Shown here one piece after another: positions 11,733-19,203 of a stretch of 19,203 nucleotides of DNA (position 1 is its first letter; each line of letters opens with the position of its first letter). A program made the position numbers and the translations under genes. The notes beneath the pieces are model-generated. The model saw only the letters and a list, made by a program, of their open reading frames with translations. It had not been told where the DNA came from and made no database searches. This DNA is from a virus. The DNA is taken from the UHGV virus genome UHGV-0124605; one strand, 5' to 3'.

Positions 11733-13028
11733 ATGGCTACTTGGCAAGGATCAAATGGCGGATTGTTGGCTGGTATCGGCGGCGTCAACTCAAACGCTCC
11801 GAGCGTAAATGACATCGGCAATACGCTTCAGCTTATCAGGCAGAACAATGATATTGAGCGTTCAGGCGCTAACAATGTTGGGCTGACTGCTTTGCAAGGC
11901 CTTTCAGGTATTGCGGGGGTGTTTCAGCTGGAAAAGCAGGCTCAGCGGCAGAAAGAATTTCAGCAGGCGTACGCTAATGCTTATGCGTCTGGTGATCGCG
12001 GTGCTTTGCGTCAGTTGGCTACTCAATATCCAGACCAGATTGAATCCGTTCGTAAAGGCATGGGATTCATTGATGAAGACCAGCGGAATTCTATCGGCAC
12101 CTTAGCGGCTGGCGCACGCCTTGCGTCATCGTCTCCAGAAGCAATGCAATCATGGCTGCAAAACAACGCCAAGGAACTGACTCGCGTCGGTGTTGACCCT
12201 AACAGCGTTGCTCAGATGTATCAGCAGAATCCTTCAGGATTTGGTGAGTTTGTTGATCACCTTGGAATGGCTGCTCTTGGCCCGATTGACTACTTCAATG
12301 TTCAGGACAAGATGGCTGGTCGTGAAATTGACCGAGGCAGGCTGGCAGAGACAATCCGCAGCAATCAGGCTGGAGAAGCACTAACAGCGCGTGGTCAGGA
12401 CATCCAGATACGTGGACAGAACATCAGCGCACAGAATGCTGCTCTTTCCCGCGAAATACAAAGAGCAGAATTACAAGAAAAGGCTCTGGACAGACAGATA
12501 GCCAGAGAAAGCAATCAGTTAAAGCTTGAAGAGCTAAAACAGAAACAGGCAGATGTTCGGCAAAAGGCTGACATAGCCCGCGCTGACAGGCAGGCCGCCG
12601 CTCAGGGTGCAGTTGATACGTTCAGCACCGCGCTTGATTCTCTCAACGAGATAGAGCAAAGCCCCGGCCTTTCAAAAGCAGTAGGAATTCGCTCAGCGTT
12701 TCCGACAGTTCCTGGCTCTGATGCGGCTAACTTTGAAGCAAGGCTCGACACCTTTAAAGCTCAAACATTCCTTCCTATGGTGCAGTCCCTGAAGGGTATG
12801 GGCGCTCTTTCAGATGCTGAGGGTAAAAAATTATCCGATGCGGTTGGTGCCCTAAGCCCCAAAATGAGTGAAAAGGCTTTTCGTGACTCTATCGGAAAGA
12901 TTAGAAATCAGCTTGAAAGCAAGTTGAGCACTGTTAAAAAACAGTTTGATTATCAGGAGCCAGTACAGAATATGCCAGGGCAACAATCTACTACTGGCAG
13001 TAACTTTTCTTCACTATGGGGTGATTAA
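11733..13028 (+). CDS. 20: Ejection (E) protein gp20-like
   Basis: 431 aa in the syntenic position after gp7, with low-complexity Gln/Ala-rich and coiled-coil content typical of P22-like internal ejection proteins. Stop overlaps the next start. Confidence 0.8.
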   Translation: MATWQGSNGGLLAGIGGVNSNAPSVNDIGNTLQLIRQNNDIERSGANNVGLTALQGLSGIAGVFQLEKQAQRQKEFQQAYANAYASGDRGALRQLATQYPDQIESVRKGMGFIDEDQRNSIGTLAAGARLASSSPEAMQSWLQNNAKELTRVGVDPNSVAQMYQQNPSGFGEFVDHLGMAALGPIDYFNVQDKMAGREIDRGRLAETIRSNQAGEALTARGQDIQIRGQNISAQNAALSREIQRAELQEKALDRQIARESNQLKLEELKQKQADVRQKADIARADRQAAAQGAVDTFSTALDSLNEIEQSPGLSKAVGIRSAFPTVPGSDAANFEARLDTFKAQTFLPMVQSLKGMGALSDAEGKKLSDAVGALSPKMSEKAFRDSIGKIRNQLESKLSTVKKQFDYQEPVQNMPGQQSTTGSNFSSLWGD

Positions 13029-15025
13029 TGGCTAAAGCATGGAAAGATGTTATCGCCTCTCCACAGTATCAGGCGTTAGCACCAGAACAAAAAGCGCAGG
13101 CTCAGGAGCAATACTTCAATGAAGTCGTGGCCCCGCAAGCCGGAGAAAATGCAGAGCAGGCTAAGCAAGCTTTCTATGCTGCCTATCCATTGCCATCTGT
13201 GCAGCCAGTGGAGACACAACAACCAGTAGCACAGCAACAACCACAGCAAAGTGGATTTATGTCTGATCTTGGTGAAGCAGTAAAAGAGACTGGTCGCGGA
13301 CTGGTGCAGGCTGGCGTGAACGTGGCAAACATACCTGCATCAGTTGCCGATGCTGTAACAAGCGCGGCGGCTTGGGCTGGCGGTAAACTCGGTATTGGCG
13401 ATGGTACATATCAACCAGCACCACGAGTAACAACGCAGGGATTAGAGCAGGACTTTGGCCTTCAGCAAGGTGCGCTGACTCCACAAACGACAGAGGGAAG
13501 GGTATTTGCTGAAGCATTGCCTTACCTCACTCCTGCTGGCGTTGAGAGAGCGGCGGTACAGGCACCAACACTTGCTGGTCGAATTGCTCAGGGGGCAACT
13601 CGCCTTCTAGCAGAAAACGCAGTTGGATCACTTGCTGCAAATAGTGCGAAAGATGATGCGGAAGCACTCGCCACCGATTTAGGCGTTGGTGTACTTGCTG
13701 GCGGTGCTATTAACGCTGCCGGACGTGGATTAGGTGCTGCTTATCGTGGCGTTCGTGGTGCTATCGCGCCAGAAGCGCAGCAGGCTATCAGATTTGCAGA
13801 GCGTGAAGGAGTTCCTCTGCACACCACAGACCTGTTACAACCAACTTCCCGCGTCGGAAAAATGGCGCAGACTACAGCAGAAAATATCCCTCTGGCTGGC
13901 ACAAGCGGAATGAGAGCAACGCAACAGGAAGCTAGAAGCCAGTTGGTGCAGAGATTTGCTGATAAATTCGGTGAGTATGATCCAGCGGTTGTTATTGACA
14001 GCCTTAAAGCGAAAACATCAGGAATTCGTCGTGCTGCAGGGAATCGTCTTGAGCAGGTTCAGAATGCAATGGCGGGAGTCAATATCCAGCCTGCGCGAGC
14101 AATTCAGCAGATTGATACTGAGATATCTAATCTGCAGAAGCTTGGTAAGGTAGCTGATAACGAGACAATTTCAAAACTTCAGTCATATCGTGATGAGCTT
14201 GTTCGCAATGCTGGTCCTGATGGTCCGGTAAATCTGGATTTGAAGCAATTAAGCGACCTGCGCAGCCAGTTCAGAATGGACGTGAAGGGTGAGCGACCAG
14301 TGTTACCAAACCGTTCCGATGCTGCCATTCAGCGCGTTTACAAGGCAATGACTGACGATATCAATGGTGCCATTGGTCAGAATCTTGGCAACGATACTCT
14401 CCGTAAATATCAGCAGGCCAATGCCGTCTACGCTGACGAAGCGGCGAAACTAAAGAATACCAGGCTGAAGAATGTTCTCATGAAAGGCGACCTGACGCCG
14501 GAAGTCGTCAACAACATGCTATTCAGCAAGAACAAATCGGAAATTAAGACGCTGTATAACTCAGTTGGTCGTGTTGGCAGGGCGCAAATGCGCAATGGCA
14601 TCATTGGAAAGGCGATGGAGAAATCTGGCGGATCCCCTGACCAGTTCCTTCGGCAGCTTAACATCCTGCAAAACCAGACTGGCATCACATTTAAGGGGCA
14701 GGACGCTGCTTATCTGAAAGGATTAAAAAACTACCTGCAATCCACGCAGCAGGCTGCAAAAGCGGCAGTAACAACACCCACAGGGCAGCAAACTATCCCG
14801 TTCATTATTGGGTATGGGACGGCAATGAACCCGGCGACAACTGGCGCAGCAGTAAGCTACGGACTTCTTACTCGCGCCTATGAGAGCGAGCCATTCAGAA
14901 ATGCAATGCTCCGAATGGCAAACACCCCACGCGGATCAACAGCGTTTGAGAAAGCCATGCAGCAGGCACAAAAGGCAATTAACGCTATGACGCAGGGGGC
15001 TAAGTCTGATGCGTTGTCAGAATAG
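13028..15025 (+). CDS. 16: Ejection (E) protein gp16-like
   Basis: 665 aa in the syntenic position, the last gene of the late structural block before the accessory region. Ala/Gly/Gln-rich as in gp16-type proteins. Confidence 0.8.
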   Translation: MAKAWKDVIASPQYQALAPEQKAQAQEQYFNEVVAPQAGENAEQAKQAFYAAYPLPSVQPVETQQPVAQQQPQQSGFMSDLGEAVKETGRGLVQAGVNVANIPASVADAVTSAAAWAGGKLGIGDGTYQPAPRVTTQGLEQDFGLQQGALTPQTTEGRVFAEALPYLTPAGVERAAVQAPTLAGRIAQGATRLLAENAVGSLAANSAKDDAEALATDLGVGVLAGGAINAAGRGLGAAYRGVRGAIAPEAQQAIRFAEREGVPLHTTDLLQPTSRVGKMAQTTAENIPLAGTSGMRATQQEARSQLVQRFADKFGEYDPAVVIDSLKAKTSGIRRAAGNRLEQVQNAMAGVNIQPARAIQQIDTEISNLQKLGKVADNETISKLQSYRDELVRNAGPDGPVNLDLKQLSDLRSQFRMDVKGERPVLPNRSDAAIQRVYKAMTDDINGAIGQNLGNDTLRKYQQANAVYADEAAKLKNTRLKNVLMKGDLTPEVVNNMLFSKNKSEIKTLYNSVGRVGRAQMRNGIIGKAMEKSGGSPDQFLRQLNILQNQTGITFKGQDAAYLKGLKNYLQSTQQAAKAAVTTPTGQQTIPFIIGYGTAMNPATTGAAVSYGLLTRAYESEPFRNAMLRMANTPRGSTAFEKAMQQAQKAINAMTQGAKSDALSE

Positions 15026-15115
15026 CTTTTCAAATACCAGGAACGTGCAAAAACCAAATATGTAGAACGCGAGGTTTATCGTATCCCTCTGCATAGGCGA
15101 TACCTTTGCTGATTG

Positions 15116-15601
15116 TTATCTGATGTTACTGCTACTGTTGCATGTGACTGTATTTCCAAACCCTGAATTGCAGTTTGTGTAAGTGTCAACTCGTGTTGGA
15201 TAGGGTTGAGTTATAACAGGCTGTCTCGCTTTTTGCTCGATCGCTTGCATTGTGTTTACAGCCTGATAATTCAATAAAGCCTGCTGGAATGCTTGGCTTT
15301 GCGCTATTTGTTGGGCTTGTTCTTGGCTTTGTAGTTGAACATAAAGATTCTGAAGCTCAAGTCTTGCCTGCGCGTCACTTATCTTGCCATCATCGACACC
15401 TTGCCCGAGCATCTTCGCAGCAAGGACATATAACTTAGGTGTTGGTGCTGATGCCATGCGTGAGTCGTTCTTCACGCTAGCATCAAGGCAATTAGCCATA
15501 TCGCTAAGCTTTGGATAGCGTTGTTCGCAATTTGCCTGATAGTCGCTAACCTTTGCACACCCTGCCAGCAGAAGCGGGATAATTAACAGTGATTTTTTCA
15601 T
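15116..15601 (-). CDS. Predicted lipoprotein (161 aa), function unknown; candidate superinfection-exclusion or lysogenic-conversion protein
   Basis: On the - strand, strong RBS AAGGAGAG 7 nt upstream of the ATG at 15601-15599. Signal peptide MKKSLLIIPLLLAGC with lipobox LAG|C. Mature part has two Cys pairs and a Gln-rich helical segment. The ORF-track start at 15631 would place the RBS inside the coding sequence, so I prefer 15601. Confidence 0.7.
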   Translation of the reverse strand: MKKSLLIIPLLLAGCAKVSDYQANCEQRYPKLSDMANCLDASVKNDSRMASAPTPKLYVLAAKMLGQGVDDGKISDAQARLELQNLYVQLQSQEQAQQIAQSQAFQQALLNYQAVNTMQAIEQKARQPVITQPYPTRVDTYTNCNSGFGNTVTCNSSSNIR

Positions 15602-15735
15602 ATGATTAACTCTCCTTATCTTTGCCATCATGGCACTGTTGGGTGTAAATGAGTTATTAACTCAATCGACAATATCTTCACGAAAATACTTTTTATTATT
15701 AAGATCTTTCTGATTCTAACAAAACGTAAAGTAAT

Positions 15736-16155
15736 ATGAAGAGGATTATCGGCGTCGTTGCTGGCGCTATATTGTTATCTGGGTGCGCAACTATTGTTGG
15801 TGACGAAACACAGCTTGTGCAAGTGAACAGCAATCCTTCCGGCGCGAGCTTTAAGGTAAAAGACGAATCAGGCGTGATTGTTGCGCAAGGTAAGACCCCG
15901 CAAGGAGTAACTCTTGCCAAGTCAGATGGTAGTTATTTTGGCAAAAAGAGCTACCAGATCACTATGGAGAAGGATGGGTACGAACCAGTTACCCTGCCAA
16001 TCAAAGCCAATGCTAATGGTTGGTATATTGGTGGAAACCTTGTGTTTGGTGGGTTAATTGGTTGGCTTGCTGTAGATCCATTTAATGGCGGGATGTATAC
16101 CTTGAAGCCTAAAGAGGCAAATGCATCCCTTATACCGTCCACAAAGCAAGACTAG
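15736..16155 (+). CDS. Predicted lipoprotein (139 aa) with PEGA-like beta domain and Gly-rich hydrophobic C-terminal segment, function unknown
   Basis: Signal peptide MKRIIGVVAGAILLSGC with lipobox LSG|C. NSNPSGASFKV...GKTPQGVTL...GYEPV resembles a PEGA-type domain. C-terminal WYIGGNLVFGGLIGWLAVDPFNGGMY is glycine-zipper-like. Followed by a terminator hairpin. Confidence 0.7.
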   Translation: MKRIIGVVAGAILLSGCATIVGDETQLVQVNSNPSGASFKVKDESGVIVAQGKTPQGVTLAKSDGSYFGKKSYQITMEKDGYEPVTLPIKANANGWYIGGNLVFGGLIGWLAVDPFNGGMYTLKPKEANASLIPSTKQD

Positions 16156-16162
16156 TAAATGG

Positions 16163-16186
16163 AACCCACCATCAGGTGGGTTTTTT
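16163..16186 (+). terminator. Rho-independent terminator hairpin between the convergent lipoprotein and mnt genes
   Basis: AACCCACC (16163-16170), loop ATCA, GGTGGGTT (16175-16182), then TTTT. The downstream arm overlaps the last codons and stop of mnt on the opposite strand. Confidence 0.6.
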
Positions 16187-16423
16187 GTACAAATCCTTCA
16201 GCGTATCAAACACCATCTTCTTAACAAGTTCAGACTGCTCATCAGCGATACGTTCCGCATCGTCTCGATAGCCTGAAATTTTGGATGGCTTTGATACAGC
16301 ATCAGTCACTATCTGAACTAATTCTGAATTAAGAGAGCGGCCATTGGATTTGGCTCGCTGTTTTAGTTTTTCCTTTAATTCGTAAGGTAGCCGCAGATTA
16401 AATTGCGGGTCATCTCTTCCCAT
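16172..16423 (-). CDS. mnt: Mnt repressor (ribbon-helix-helix, Arc/MetJ family)
   Basis: 83 aa: MGRDDPQFNLRLPYELKEKLKQRAKSNGRSLNSELVQIVTDAVSKPS...GYRDDAERIADEQSELVKKMVFDTLKDLYKKPT, near-identical to P22 Mnt as recalled, same length. Confidence 0.93.
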   Translation of the reverse strand: MGRDDPQFNLRLPYELKEKLKQRAKSNGRSLNSELVQIVTDAVSKPSKISGYRDDAERIADEQSELVKKMVFDTLKDLYKKPT

Positions 16424-16455
16424 TCTTGATGCCTCGCTCTTGTGAGTGGATCGGC

Positions 16456-16484
16456 ATCTTATTATCTGCTGGTTGCATCCTCAA
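16456..16484 (-). promoter_or_regulatory. Candidate sigma70 promoter for mnt (Pmnt)
   Basis: On the - strand, TTGAGG (complement of 16479-16484), 17-nt spacer, TAAGAT (complement of 16456-16461), about 30 nt upstream of the mnt ATG. Consensus-like only; not verified. Confidence 0.3.
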
Positions 16485-16487
16485 TAA

Positions 16488-16500
16488 GACCACGGTGGTC
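16488..16500. promoter_or_regulatory. Mnt-operator-like palindrome GACCAC-G-GTGGTC
   Basis: Perfect 6-bp inverted arms around a central G. The core CCACGGTGG is the same as I recall for the P22 mnt operator. Lies between mnt and the tailspike start. Confidence 0.55.
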
Positions 16501-16557
16501 GTATTTTTGTTTAATAATGAATCACTGCGGCCATTCCTTGTATCTGGAGCAAATTAA

Positions 16558-19203
16558 ATGACAGACATTACAGCCAATGTTGTAGTGAGCATGCCTTCGC
16601 AACTCTTTACTATGGCCCGCTCTTTTAAAGCCGTAGCTAATGGCAAAATTTATATCGGTAAAATTGACACTGACCCAGTAAATCCTGAAAACCAGATTCA
16701 GGTTTATGTGGAGAATGAAGACGGTTCTCACGTTCCTGTTTCGCAACCTATAATCATTAACGCTGCTGGATATCCGGTATATAACGGACAGATTGCCAAG
16801 TTCGTAACTGTGCAAGGCCATTCTATGGCTGTTTATGATGCGTATGGTGCACAGCAGTTCTATTTTCCTAATGTGCTGAAGTATGACCCGGATCAGTTTA
16901 AACAAAAAGTATTATCAAATGATATGCTAAATATGTCTCCTCTTTATTTTGGAGCTAAGGGGGATGGGATTAGCGATGATACTGAAGCATTTGTCGCGTT
17001 GGAAATGGATATAAAAAATAGGGTTATTGATTTAAGTGGAAGAGCATTTTTTGTTACTAAAAGTTTTATTGAAAATAGCTATATAAATGGTTCTTTTATT
17101 CGTGATGGCAGTAAACGAATTGCGATTGGTGATCTTAAATTAAGAGATAAAAGAGAGCCATTGATATTTTCCGGAATGCCAAAAGTATATAACACCAGAC
17201 ACACGTTGCGCAGAACTGAAGGTGCGGGTGGTTTATATGCGGTCATTCAGGGGTGTTGTTATGATGAAATTAACGACAAGATTTTTACTTTATCATCTAC
17301 CACAGCATACGGTTATTGCATTAATGCCTTTGACGTGACGAATTCTGGTGAACTAGGAAGATACGACAGAACCCGTTCTACTGAACTTGGGCATCAGGGG
17401 CTTGGATTGCATCATAATCCTGATGGTACTGTCGTGCTGTGGACATCGAAGCCTTATGGAACCGATGCCGCCAATCAATGTATTTCGATGGAAAATATAT
17501 TGAGTTACACAGGGACAACCAACGGAGTATCTGAAGGTTTTATCACCTGGAAGTTGTTCCCCTATGATGGAATGAGCGCAAGCTCTACTCCAACTGTATC
17601 AAGTTGTGAAAACTATCTCCTTGCCAAGAAAATTTCATCGGATGGAATTACCTGCACGGTTCGTGTTTTCGACATAGTCAGCATGTGGAATAACAGAGCT
17701 CATAAAACTGATTATAGTGATGATTATTTAGTTGAGTTTAGCTATCAAAAACCATCACAAGAAGCATTTACCCAATCAATTGCTTGCGATGGGGCATACA
17801 TTTACATACTTGAGTCACATACGTATGTTGGCATGACTAATTATATTTACGTATTTGACTTAACAGGCAGGTTTATTGAGCGAGTAGATATTTCAACTGT
17901 TGGTGATGATGAAGCAAAATCTGACAGTACAGGAACTCCTGTTTATAAAGAGCCTGAGTCCCTAACAGTAATTAGAACGGAGAGTGGGTATGTTTTAACG
18001 CTGGGGATATGCACATATAAAGGAGTTGCTGAGAACGGGAAAAATGTATATCTGTTTGATATAGGCAGGTCTGGTTCGGTAGTGCAAAGCAAAGCAAGCC
18101 GTTCTGTATCCAGTAATACTGGTCTTCATAGTTCTGGCTCCCCGGAGTTCAAATATGGAGTAAGGGAGTACAATGATACTTTTCACTGGACAGTTTGGCC
18201 AACAAGAAAGGGTATTCAAACTAACCGGGATAACCCTATATTGTTTCTTGATGGCGGAATTACTGGTGGAATGCAGTTAGCTTCAAACGGCACGGAAGGG
18301 ATGAGCAACTCATGGGTTTCCCGGCATCAGTCAGACACCGCAGAAGGACCAAGAGCAATAATGTATAAGTCTCGCTCTGGTGTTGTATCAACTGATAATT
18401 TTGGAGCTCTGCAGACAGGGGATGTATTGGGTACTCATGTATGGGCCGGTGATACAGGTAGCAAGGCTGTGCAATGCGCACGCATTAAATGCGTCACAAG
18501 AGGTAATCCTTCCGGAGACAATATCCCGGTTGCTTTCTACTTTGGAACCATGGGTGAGAGTGACGGCTTGCGTGACAGATGGGTATTAACAGAATTAGGT
18601 CATTTTCGACCATCAGGTTCAAATATTTATGATATTGGTACACAGTCGAATACTGTCAGAAACCTGTATATAAATAATAGCCCCATTGTAACCAGCGACA
18701 GAAATCACAAGCAGGATGAAGCTTCATTATCTGATGCAGAACTACGGGTTGGAATGGCTATTTACCCGCTGATAAAAAAATTCAGAATGAAGGATGCTGT
18801 AAAAGAAAAAGGCTTGTCAGCGCGTGAGCATATCGGTGTAATTGCGCAAGATATACAATCCATCTTTGAATCTGAGGGGCTTGATGCATTTTCTTATGGG
18901 GTTCTTTGCTATGAAGAGTGGGATGATGAGTATGAGAAAGTCTATGCAACAAGAAATGTGACCAGAAAAATTTTAATTGATGAAGAGTCTGGTCAGTATG
19001 ATGAAATCACAGAGGAAGAAGAGTATGAAACTGGTGAAGTAAGGTTAATTATGGAATCAGGAAGAAAATTATCAGTGCGCTATGACGAGTTAATGTTTCT
19101 GGCAATGAGCGCACTATATCATCACCATGAGCAGGATATTGCCAATATCACATCAAAGATTAATAATCTGGAAAAATTATTAAAGTTAACACTAAATGGT
19201 TGA
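16558..19203 (+). CDS. 9: Tailspike protein, mosaic: P22 gp9-type head-binding domain, uncharacterised central receptor-binding/depolymerase-like domain, endosialidase-type C-terminal intramolecular chaperone (peptidase S74-like)
   Basis: 881 aa. Residues 1-113 match the P22 tailspike head-binding domain from memory ([11 protein letters not shown]...[33 protein letters not shown]...QGHSMA.YDA.G.Q....NVLKYDPDQ). The centre begins with a [13 protein letters not shown] motif. The C-terminus ([11 protein letters not shown]...HIGVIAQDI...[10 protein letters not shown]...) resembles the K1F endosialidase chaperone domain. TGA stop is at the window end. Confidence 0.93.

Follow-up and report, generated by a model that had tools for sequence, protein, structure and literature searches.

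Llp of phage T5 is a precedent for a lipoprotein that excludes superinfecting phages, and both Llp and Cor are outer-membrane lipoproteins. The small lipoproteins SlyB, YfgH and YiaD, with a length of 140-170 residues, comprise a small soluble beta domain. SlyB and YfgH have been reported to form lipid nanodomains and to protect outer-membrane proteins (bioRxiv 10.64898/2025.12.22.696046). Further precedents are Cor, SieA and gp15, which prevent phages from entering the cell. Cor reportedly inactivates the FhuA receptor and thereby excludes lambdoid phages, and gp15 of HK97 is a proven superinfection-exclusion protein derived from the chromosomal YebO family (PMC3594210). For Ltp, an exclusion lipoprotein, the identified target is the tape-measure protein, according to the title of reference 9 of PMC10883804. 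Here, we describe a gene of the UHGV virus genome UHGV-0124605, of which a stretch of 19,203 nucleotides was analysed (the window). It corresponds to the late region of a P22-like phage (Lederbergvirus), and the gene, at positions 15736-16155, encodes a predicted lipoprotein of 139 residues. This gene is very probably a moron of the P22-like prophage, with its own promoter region and terminator, and its transcription in the lysogen does not depend on that of the late genes. By analogy with the exclusion systems above, its product could act in superinfection exclusion at the outer membrane or in the periplasm, to which we assign a probability of roughly 0.35.

The protein is 100% identical to GALLYPH_14 of Gally, the prophage of LF82; the identity is 99.3% with a protein of vB_EcoP-720R6 and 97.8% with gp15 of epsilon34. 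All three are annotated as hypothetical. The gene is a single open reading frame with an ATG start and with the stop codon included in its coordinates, and the peptides SNPSGASFKV, GKTPQGVTL, GYEPVTLPI and WYIGGNLVFGGLIGWLAVDPFNGGMY, quoted in a first description made without database searches (the sequence-only reading), are all found within its translation. A word-indexed search returned 728 homologues at E<=1e-3, and an exhaustive search of 1.84 billion cluster representatives with a profile hidden Markov model (HMM) returned 5539 representatives at E<=1e-3 and 2066 at E<=1e-10. Between the gene and its epsilon34 counterpart, the synonymous divergence (dS) is 0.29 and the non-synonymous divergence (dN) is 0.009, giving a dN/dS of 0.03. 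All three substitutions are located in the signal peptide, and the mature protein is identical. Compared with the Gally gene, there are no non-synonymous changes at a dS of 0.12. Because of the many homologues, the conservation of the lipobox cysteine (Cys17) and the dN/dS of 0.03, the open reading frame does not arise by chance, and it is confirmed as a genuine gene that is subject to strong purifying selection.

Among phage records, the gene is found in only four, and most P22-like phages are without it. Of 5426 complete E. coli genomes, 126 have near-identical DNA, in every case on the chromosome, including those of LF82 and of the enterohaemorrhagic E. coli (EHEC) strain O111:H- 11128; the E. 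coli alleles are labelled by PGAP as 'hypothetical protein' or 'peptidase associated/transthyretin-like domain-containing protein'. The gene and the divergent gene upstream of it, which encodes another lipoprotein, behave as separate cassettes: epsilon34 carries the former without the latter and Salmonella phage VSe13 carries the latter without the former, indicating that they are exchanged independently. The epsilon34 genome paper assigns genes 14 and 15 to the 'ant moron'. Three features that usually mark morons were compared. First, the gene forms a discrete piece of DNA that is missing from close phages. Second, it has its own terminator and promoter region and is expressed from the repressed prophage, the promoter sequence being a match read by eye at 8 of 12 consensus positions. 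Third, as regards base composition, its GC content is 46.2%, with 51.0% for the upstream gene-16 homologue and 40.3% for the downstream tailspike gene, and the GC content at third codon positions is undistinctive, with 45.0% for the gene, 43.5% for the upstream gene and 33.4% for the tailspike gene. The earlier claim that codon usage is more AT-rich than in the flanking structural genes is weak, since the tailspike gene is lower still, and the reduced GC content spans the entire right end of the window (15.0-19.2 kb) and is not peculiar to this gene.

The expression data come from the published RNA sequencing of LF82, in which the identical gene is LF82_139/GALLYPH_14 (PMC9928086, tables S1 and S4; values are log2(fpkm+5), where fpkm is fragments per kilobase per million, for two replicates). 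GALLYPH_14 reached 6.2/4.8 in overnight LB, 9.8/10.2 and 10.5/10.2 in the two conditions with bacteria only (B1 and B6, respectively), 11.0/11.0 after 1 h in macrophages and 9.4/9.5 after 6 h in macrophages, whereas the adjacent ejection-protein genes remained at 2.3-4.2 (PMC9928086). The C2 repressor ranged from 8.9 to 12.0 overall and from 10.5 to 12.0 in the four non-LB conditions (PMC9928086). The signal of GALLYPH_14 in the lysogen is thus about 100-fold above that of the adjacent structural and late genes. The LF82 study applied a 5-fold threshold to the overnight LB data and, on this basis, scored Gally as lacking morons (PMC9928086). This verdict follows from GALLYPH_14 being only 3.3-fold above background in LB (4.5-fold for GALLYPH_13, the LF82 copy of the divergent neighbour), and both are far higher in the other four conditions (PMC9928086, Table S1). 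According to the authors' own tables, GALLYPH_14 is autonomously and strongly transcribed in the lysogen under the four non-LB conditions. Between LB and 6 h in macrophages, GALLYPH_14 increases with a log2 fold change of 3.84 (14-fold, q 1.4e-31), and GALLYPH_13 is likewise up in macrophages (log2 fold change 2.55; PMC9928086). As all five right-end genes of Gally rise together in macrophages (PMC9928086), this induction may be regional, for example through relief of silencing of an AT-rich region.

With regard to the protein itself, the translation starts with a lipoprotein signal, MKRIIGVVAGAILLSG followed by a cysteine. It exhibits K2 and R3 in the n-region, the hydrophobic stretch IIGVVAGAILL, the lipobox L-S-G-C, Cys17 (15784-15786) and an alanine at position +2. 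Such a signal has the composition described by PROSITE PS51257-type criteria, which comprise a positive n-region, an h-region and a lipobox [LVI][ASTVI][GAS]C within the first 15-35 residues. Cys17 is present in 125 of 126 diverse homologues, in which C17, A18 and I20 are nearly invariant, so that the earlier designation as a lipoprotein is borne out. Cys17 is the predicted acylated N-terminus of the mature protein. In E. coli, the residue at position +2 governs the Lol sorting of lipoproteins. Because of the alanine at this position, Lol-dependent sorting to the outer membrane is predicted. In one relative (P0143), the same module is fused to an OmpA-like beta-barrel, which favours a position on the periplasmic side of the outer membrane. 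We infer from these sequence features that the protein is probably located at the outer membrane and faces the periplasm.

The structure of the protein was modelled with AlphaFold2. With an alignment of 34 close homologues, the beta-sandwich is confident and residues 96-118 are below a predicted local distance difference test (pLDDT) score of 50. With 126 diverse homologues (35-78% identical to the query), the mean pLDDT is 87 and the strands of residues 25-93 have a pLDDT of 90-98; this deep alignment was needed to obtain the helix. In the second model, a single 18-residue helix is predicted at residues 95-112 (pLDDT 67-80), followed by an invariant D-P-x-x-G-x-M loop and by two strands, at residues 121-124 and 127-131 (pLDDT of the block 96), that return to the sandwich. 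Residues 95-121 carry the signature G-W-Y-x-G-G-N-x-x-F-G-G-L-I-G-W-L-x-V-D-P-x-x-G-x-M-[YW], which is the most conserved block of the family and not a low-complexity tail. Among the 126 sequences, G109, D114, P115, G118 and M120 are invariant, and W96, Y97, G100, N101, G105 and G106 are at least 90% conserved. The sequence-only reading placed a Gly/aromatic-rich hydrophobic stretch at the C-terminus. The stretch is real, with Wimley-White energies of -5.3 kcal/mol (octanol) and -7.3 kcal/mol (interfacial) over residues 95-113, but in the model it is inserted within the sandwich and does not form a C-terminal tail. The helix is uniformly hydrophobic (Eisenberg mean hydrophobicity 0.71, hydrophobic moment 0.08) and has aromatic residues at both ends. 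A second, probably membrane-embedded segment is supported by these predictions, in agreement with the suggestion that the stretch could insert into or associate with a membrane. As the chain rejoins the sandwich, both ends of the segment would be on the same side of the membrane. Residues 95-121 may therefore not span the membrane but enter one leaflet in a re-entrant manner, with the near-invariant G105-G106 as a possible hinge. In the family, the lipobox, the sandwich and the helix appear to make up a reusable unit for anchoring to the outer membrane.

The family models were searched for known relatives of this architecture. The only match of the protein in a Pfam-A scan at E<=1 is PEGA (PF08308), over residues 28-93 with an E-value of 0.0037. 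Its 17.6 bits are below the gathering score of 20.8, and only one of ten relatives tested passes this threshold (P0270, 21.5 bits). The term PEGA-like consequently holds at the level of the fold class, since the model exhibits a transthyretin/prealbumin-like sandwich, and not at the level of the Pfam family. The term glycine-zipper-like is not supported. For these families, we considered the Pfam models Gly-zipper_Omp, Gly-zipper_YMGG, Gly-zipper_OmpA and Rick_17kDa_Anti (two-transmembrane, 2TM) and the motifs (G/A/S)xxxGxxxG and GxxxGxxx(G/S/T). No Gly-zipper model matches at E<=1 in Pfam-A and the strict GxxxGxxxG motif is absent, so that membership was rejected. The only GxxxG in the segment is G105-G109, with N at position 101 and V at position 113, and the clustering of glycines on one helical face is not significant (p ~0.14). 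A BLASTP comparison with a manually entered sequence of E. coli SlyB gave no significant similarity.

Other models leave the protein without a characterised family. In PHROGs, it matches phrog_6823, of unknown function, over its full length. The Cor model NF047972 matches residues 1-30 only (E 0.19, 11.7 bits for a cutoff of 31) and the Cor family phrog_1119 matches residues 1-20, the signal peptide, only (E 0.0034); both were rejected, as were the models of Bor, spanins and immunity lipoproteins of the type VI secretion system, which match the signal peptide only or not at all. On the basis of these sequence comparisons, the protein is outside the PEGA (at the Pfam threshold), Gly-zipper, Cor, Bor and spanin families. 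In NCBIfam, LEPBI_I2678 gives a local match over residues 68-133 (E 5.8e-5, 22.9 bits for a cutoff of 240). The family profile retrieved only marginal immunoglobulin/CnaB-like matches among PDB chain sequences (best E 0.005), Foldseek found nothing in the PDB at E<=0.001, and Rfam gave only a sub-threshold chance match over positions 14800-16800. Among the papers that could be searched, none characterises the protein or its family.

Many members of the family are chromosomal. A scan of one genome per species identified 303 relatives in gamma-, beta-, delta- and zeta-proteobacteria, with many homologues among free-living Proteobacteria of marine and soil habitats as well as among insect symbionts. 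Members from outside Enterobacterales typically have about 170 residues and an additional conserved C-terminal tail (IVLLxDVPxxLR). In loci L045-L094, this tail makes up the C-terminal 30-40 residues and has the motif [ILV][ILV]LL.DVP..LR..M, which the enterobacterial and phage forms do not have. In other relatives, the additions are Pro/Ala-rich linkers, a Cys-rich domain or an OmpA-like barrel. None of 50 loci with the long form is in a recognisable phage context. Across 80 genomic loci, no neighbourhood is conserved family-wide and neighbours are kept only within genera, so that no partner can be deduced from operon structure. Short-form orthologues, 64-78% identical over full-length alignments and 70-81% identical by local BLASTP, are located in ordinary chromosomal loci: between the ydcSTUV-patD genes and ortT in Enterobacter, next to the ydcY and ydcZ homologues in Leclercia and near pmrD in Kosakonia. 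The Lonsdalea locus also looks non-phage. As these orthologues sit in ordinary loci, the phage gene is that of a recently captured envelope lipoprotein, which is native to enterobacteria but is not encoded on the core chromosomes of E. coli and Salmonella. The sequence-only reading sensibly proposed an envelope-acting role; it missed the mobile moron status, the chromosomal orthologues and the published expression.

How the protein could exclude phages can be outlined from the predicted features. Once acylated at Cys17 and sorted by Lol to the outer membrane, the lipoprotein would face the periplasm. It would be doubly anchored, by its lipid and by the hydrophobic helix-loop, the latter acting as a re-entrant wedge hinged at G105-G106. 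In this way, it could occupy or reorganise either the outer membrane at its periplasmic face or a conserved partner at this site, and convert the envelope of the lysogen. Superinfecting phages would then be unable to build their trans-envelope DNA conduit from ejection proteins or from a tape-measure protein.

We favour exclusion because the gene lies in the sieA interval and its homologue in the gp15 slot, because it is linked to genome-delivery genes in three phage lineages and because Cor and Ltp provide precedents. The window contains, in this order, the terminase, portal, scaffold, coat and three ejection-protein genes, the gene-16 homologue ending at 15025, and the gene under study lies between this homologue and mnt. 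In P22, the interval between gene 16 and mnt contains sieA and orf59a. Among 66 P22-like phages, sieA is found in only 22, and its position is always between genes 16 and 9 (PMC10883804); inspection of the gene content revealed no sieA in this window or in epsilon34. In E. coli prophages such as that of ED1a, a homologue that is 68% identical (P0061, 445 contigs) is located between the tail genes T and H; the corresponding region of phage JLK-2012 is otherwise 92.6% identical but does not contain this cassette. A 70% identical homologue in a Proteus prophage lies just upstream of the tape-measure gene, and a 78% identical homologue of Pseudescherichia vulneris lies between I and J. HK97 has morons in matching slots: gp15 between T and H, and gp22 after I.

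Several observations weigh against exclusion. The same slots also host non-exclusion morons, such as a porin gene between M and L, which weakens the positional argument. The mature protein is under extreme purifying selection and is 70-81% identical to ordinary chromosomal genes of Enterobacter, Kosakonia and Leclercia, suggesting that it retains a native cellular activity and did not evolve against phages. The family is widespread in free-living Proteobacteria without phage context, as in the 50 long-form loci. No PADLOC model matches the protein. The gene accompanies very different receptor-binding proteins (different tailspikes, and the J proteins of E. coli, Proteus and Pseudescherichia), which rules out that its product, like Cor or Llp, mediates self-exclusion directed at one specific receptor. 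Lastly, its expression is low in overnight LB, and the LF82 authors scored Gally as moron-free (PMC9928086).

The closest competitor to exclusion is a role as an outer-membrane stabiliser or envelope-fitness factor like SlyB and YfgH, which we regard as possible but somewhat unlikely. According to this explanation, the protein embeds in the membrane, where it binds to itself, to lipids or to outer-membrane proteins, and makes the envelope more resistant to stress from macrophages, serum, detergents or cationic peptides, the prophage supplying E. coli and Salmonella with a lipoprotein native to sister genera. This fits well with the 70-81% identical orthologues in non-prophage loci of Enterobacter, Leclercia and Kosakonia, with the stand-alone genes, without a conserved neighbour, across gamma-, beta-, delta- and zeta-proteobacteria, and with a mature sequence that is invariant at a dS of 0.29. 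It would also agree with the relative fused to an OmpA-like barrel, with the absence of a tie to any particular receptor-binding protein and with an architecture analogous to that of Gly-zipper outer-membrane lipoproteins. However, the protein shows no sequence or HMM similarity to any Gly-zipper family, its domain order is reversed and it has one helix instead of a 2TM hairpin. The 14-fold induction in macrophages relative to LB points in the same direction as the orthologues, but it is common to all five right-end Gally genes and is maybe regional. Moreover, E. coli already has SlyB, YfgH and YiaD, and stabilisation leaves unexplained why three unrelated phage lineages keep the gene beside genome-delivery genes. 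We read the protein as a probable outer-membrane lipoprotein of lysogenic conversion, for which exclusion and SlyB-like stabilisation are nearly equally likely; the two are compatible, since reorganising the inner leaflet or an outer-membrane partner could do both.

A broader proposal, which we consider doubtful, concerns the family as a whole. The signature within a transthyretin-like sandwich would define a very large uncharacterised family of proteobacterial outer-membrane lipoproteins (more than 5000 clusters at 50% identity), in which the helix-loop engages a universally conserved envelope component. The short enterobacterial form would have been captured repeatedly by temperate podoviruses and siphoviruses as a receptor-independent exclusion or conversion factor of the outer membrane, directed against trans-envelope genome delivery by unrelated phages.

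It is improbable that the gene is a host-interaction or virulence moron like Bor/Iss, Lom or TraT, whose product, being exposed at the surface or influencing it, promotes serum resistance, adhesion or intracellular survival of pathogenic E. coli and Salmonella. The presence of the gene in 126 of 5426 complete E. coli genomes, among them those of the adherent-invasive strain LF82 and of EHEC O111:H- 11128, would be consistent with this, as would its strong expression inside macrophages and the fact that transthyretin/CnaB-like sandwiches are common in adhesins. Nevertheless, expression is equally high without macrophages (B1 and B6), homologues are abundant among insect symbionts and among free-living Proteobacteria of marine and soil habitats, and nothing supports surface exposure of the protein. 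In addition, the protein has no match to Lambda_Bor or to any other virulence family in Pfam and NCBIfam.

Even less probable is a bitopic inner-membrane protein, in which residues 95-113 are a stop-transfer helix, the lipidated sandwich is periplasmic and the last 25 residues are cytoplasmic, and which acts as SieA and gp15 do. These two exclusion proteins of the same slots are indeed inner-membrane proteins, and residues 95-113 have a negative octanol energy and are predicted as one uninterrupted 18-residue helix. However, AlphaFold2 returns the strands at 121-131 to the sandwich (pLDDT 96), which is incompatible with a spanning helix, and no positive-inside bias is observed after the helix (3 K for 3 D/E). 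The alanine at +2 provides no signal for Lol avoidance, and one relative is fused to an outer-membrane beta-barrel.

An accessory of lysis or virion assembly that is needed in the lytic cycle, for instance a lipoprotein resembling an o-spanin or a factor in tail or ejection assembly, can practically be dismissed: although the gene lies within the late operon, and in its orientation, in every phage context, and is probably also transcribed late, it is dispensable, since it is absent from most P22-like phages and from near-identical siphoviruses, it is expressed in the lysogen while the late genes are silent, the Gally lysis cassette including Rz lies elsewhere, and chromosomal orthologues exist outside prophages. 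An o-spanin of the Rz1 type was rejected, as the gene lies between gene 16 and mnt, outside the lysis cassette, and is expressed in lysogeny.

The coordinates of the gene, of the parts of its product and of the neighbouring features are collected in Table 1.

Table 1. Features of the lipoprotein gene and its surroundings in the window
Feature	Position	Strand	Basis
Lipoprotein gene	15736..16155	+	listing of open reading frames; identities to phage proteins; phrog_6823 match; dN/dS 0.03
Signal peptide with lipobox L-S-G-C	15736..15786	+	read from the translation; conservation in 126 homologues
Six-stranded transthyretin-like (PEGA-clan) beta-sandwich, residues 25-93	15808..16014	+	AlphaFold2
Family signature, residues 95-121 (helix 95-112 and return loop)	16018..16098	+	conservation, AlphaFold2, hydrophobicity
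Two return strands completing the sandwich, residues 122-131	16099..16128	+	AlphaFold2
Promoter-like element: -35 TTCACG (15677-15682), 17-nt spacer, -10 TAAGAT (15700-15705)	15677..15705	+	read by eye
Rho-independent terminator hairpin GGAACCCACC-AUCA-GGUGGGUUUU, then U residues	16161..16187	+	RNA fold -18 kcal/mol, z -3.0
Divergent lipoprotein open reading frame, 171 residues as listed	15116-15631	-	listing of open reading frames
mnt gene (Arc and Repressor_Mnt domains), convergent to the lipoprotein gene	16172-16423	-	Pfam
Tailspike gene, running off the window end	16558-19203	+	Head_binding residues 1-113; Peptidase_S74 residues 713-774

The promoter-like element was not called by the scanner, whose threshold is 9 of 12 consensus positions. 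The same arrangement is observed upstream of gene 15 of epsilon34 (TTCACA-17-TAGGAT) and of the P. vulneris copy between I and J (TTGAAC-17-TAGGAT). When conserved regulatory boxes were sought upstream of the gene, only about 45 nt 5' of the ATG were found to be common to the closest phage-borne copies, namely those of the window, epsilon34 and P. vulneris. This stretch includes the promoter-like TTCAC(G/A)/TTGAAC-17-TA(A/G)GAT, and no box could be assigned to a regulator. We infer from the sequence that this element is the exact promoter of the gene, with a predicted transcription start near 15712. The scanner also reported two leftward sigma-70-like sites at 15695-15740 (-), within the 104 bp that separate the two lipoprotein genes. 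These sites would serve the divergent gene, so that the short AT-rich spacer is likely to contain back-to-back promoters for the pair of morons. The terminator hairpin was missed by the consensus terminator scan owing to a G-U extension of its stem, and the homologous site in epsilon34 is annotated as a terminator.

Concerning the divergent lipoprotein gene, the match to phrog_6067 begins at residue 11 and PGAP calls a protein of 161 residues, so the true start is probably the ATG at 15601 (MKKSLLIIPLLLAGC). Neither Pfam nor PADLOC gives a match for this neighbour, and the PADLOC defence models likewise match neither the lipoprotein under study nor two of its homologues. The mnt gene is an orphan: unlike in P22 and epsilon34, no arc or ant is found between it and the tailspike gene. 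In LF82, mnt is induced 40-fold in macrophages, and its deletion left survival unaffected (PMC9928086). The tailspike combines a P22 Head_binding N-terminus with a 'chaperone of endosialidase' C-terminus, has a low GC content of 0.35-0.44 and looks like a mosaic receptor-binding module.

In the E. coli siphovirus prophages that carry the homologue between T and H, the tail operon is dense with morons. Loci L003-L006 (for example ED1a, CU928162.2) contain, at about 12260-16390 in locus coordinates, a porin gene (Porin_1/Porin_4) between M and L. In most of them, the tail gene L is followed by genes for a ClpP-like protease (not in L006), an Arc protein and a Bro-N/P22_AR_C antirepressor.

If the lipoprotein does alter the outer membrane of the lysogen, it would represent a further conversion or exclusion function for P22-like phages without sieA. 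About 2% of complete E. coli genomes have near-identical DNA, among them those of the Crohn's-associated LF82 and of EHEC O111, and in LF82 the gene is among the most highly transcribed prophage genes inside macrophages, although the prophage was reported to be moron-free. With 139 residues, a single gene and clear mutants, it offers a tractable entry to thousands of unannotated envelope lipoproteins of Proteobacteria. Should the phenotype be nil, it remains an ordinary hypothetical moron.

Compared with known systems, the protein shares some features with each and differs from all of them. HK97 gp15 and P22 SieA are likewise small envelope proteins expressed by prophages from discrete cassettes, and their slots (between T and H in HK97-like prophages, and between genes 16 and 9 in P22-like phages) also hold homologues of the lipoprotein. 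Like the lipoprotein, gp15 originates from a chromosomal family, but gp15 has strongly diverged, whereas the lipoprotein is still about 80% identical to its orthologues. Furthermore, gp15 and SieA are alpha-helical inner-membrane proteins, are not lipoproteins and show no sequence similarity to it; their exclusion phenotype is proven, while that of the lipoprotein is suggested by analogy. Cor (of phi80, N15 and HK022) and T5 Llp are, like it, small phage lipoproteins encoded in or near tail genes. In contrast, they have only about 60-80 residues, are tied to FhuA-binding phages and are without a second hydrophobic segment, whereas the lipoprotein travels with many receptor-binding proteins and is matched by Cor models in its signal peptide only.

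Among proteins of non-phage origin, the transthyretin-like clan with PEGA has the same fold class and gives a weak profile match, but the PEGA model leaves the defining helix-loop signature uncovered. The weak match to LEPBI_I2678, an uncharacterised Leptospira family, spans the signature region and recurs in relatives. However, that family has 247 residues, and the lipoprotein is far below its cutoff and is not a member. The sequence-only reading considered a lipid anchor combined with a second membrane segment to be unusual for 139 residues, but SlyB, YfgH and YiaD are such lipoproteins (bioRxiv 10.64898/2025.12.22.696046). They have, like the lipoprotein, an N-terminal lipid anchor and a second Gly-rich membrane segment; the stress-linked protective role is theirs. 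Their segment is a 2TM hairpin of GxxxG repeats, whereas the lipoprotein has one 18-residue helix inserted in an N-terminal sandwich, and only the latter exhibits the conserved polar residues N101 (at least 90%) and D114 (invariant) in its signature. The gene is thus of a known kind, a prophage moron for a small envelope lipoprotein, and the combination of fold and signature, together with the huge unnamed chromosomal family, sets it apart from the characterised examples.

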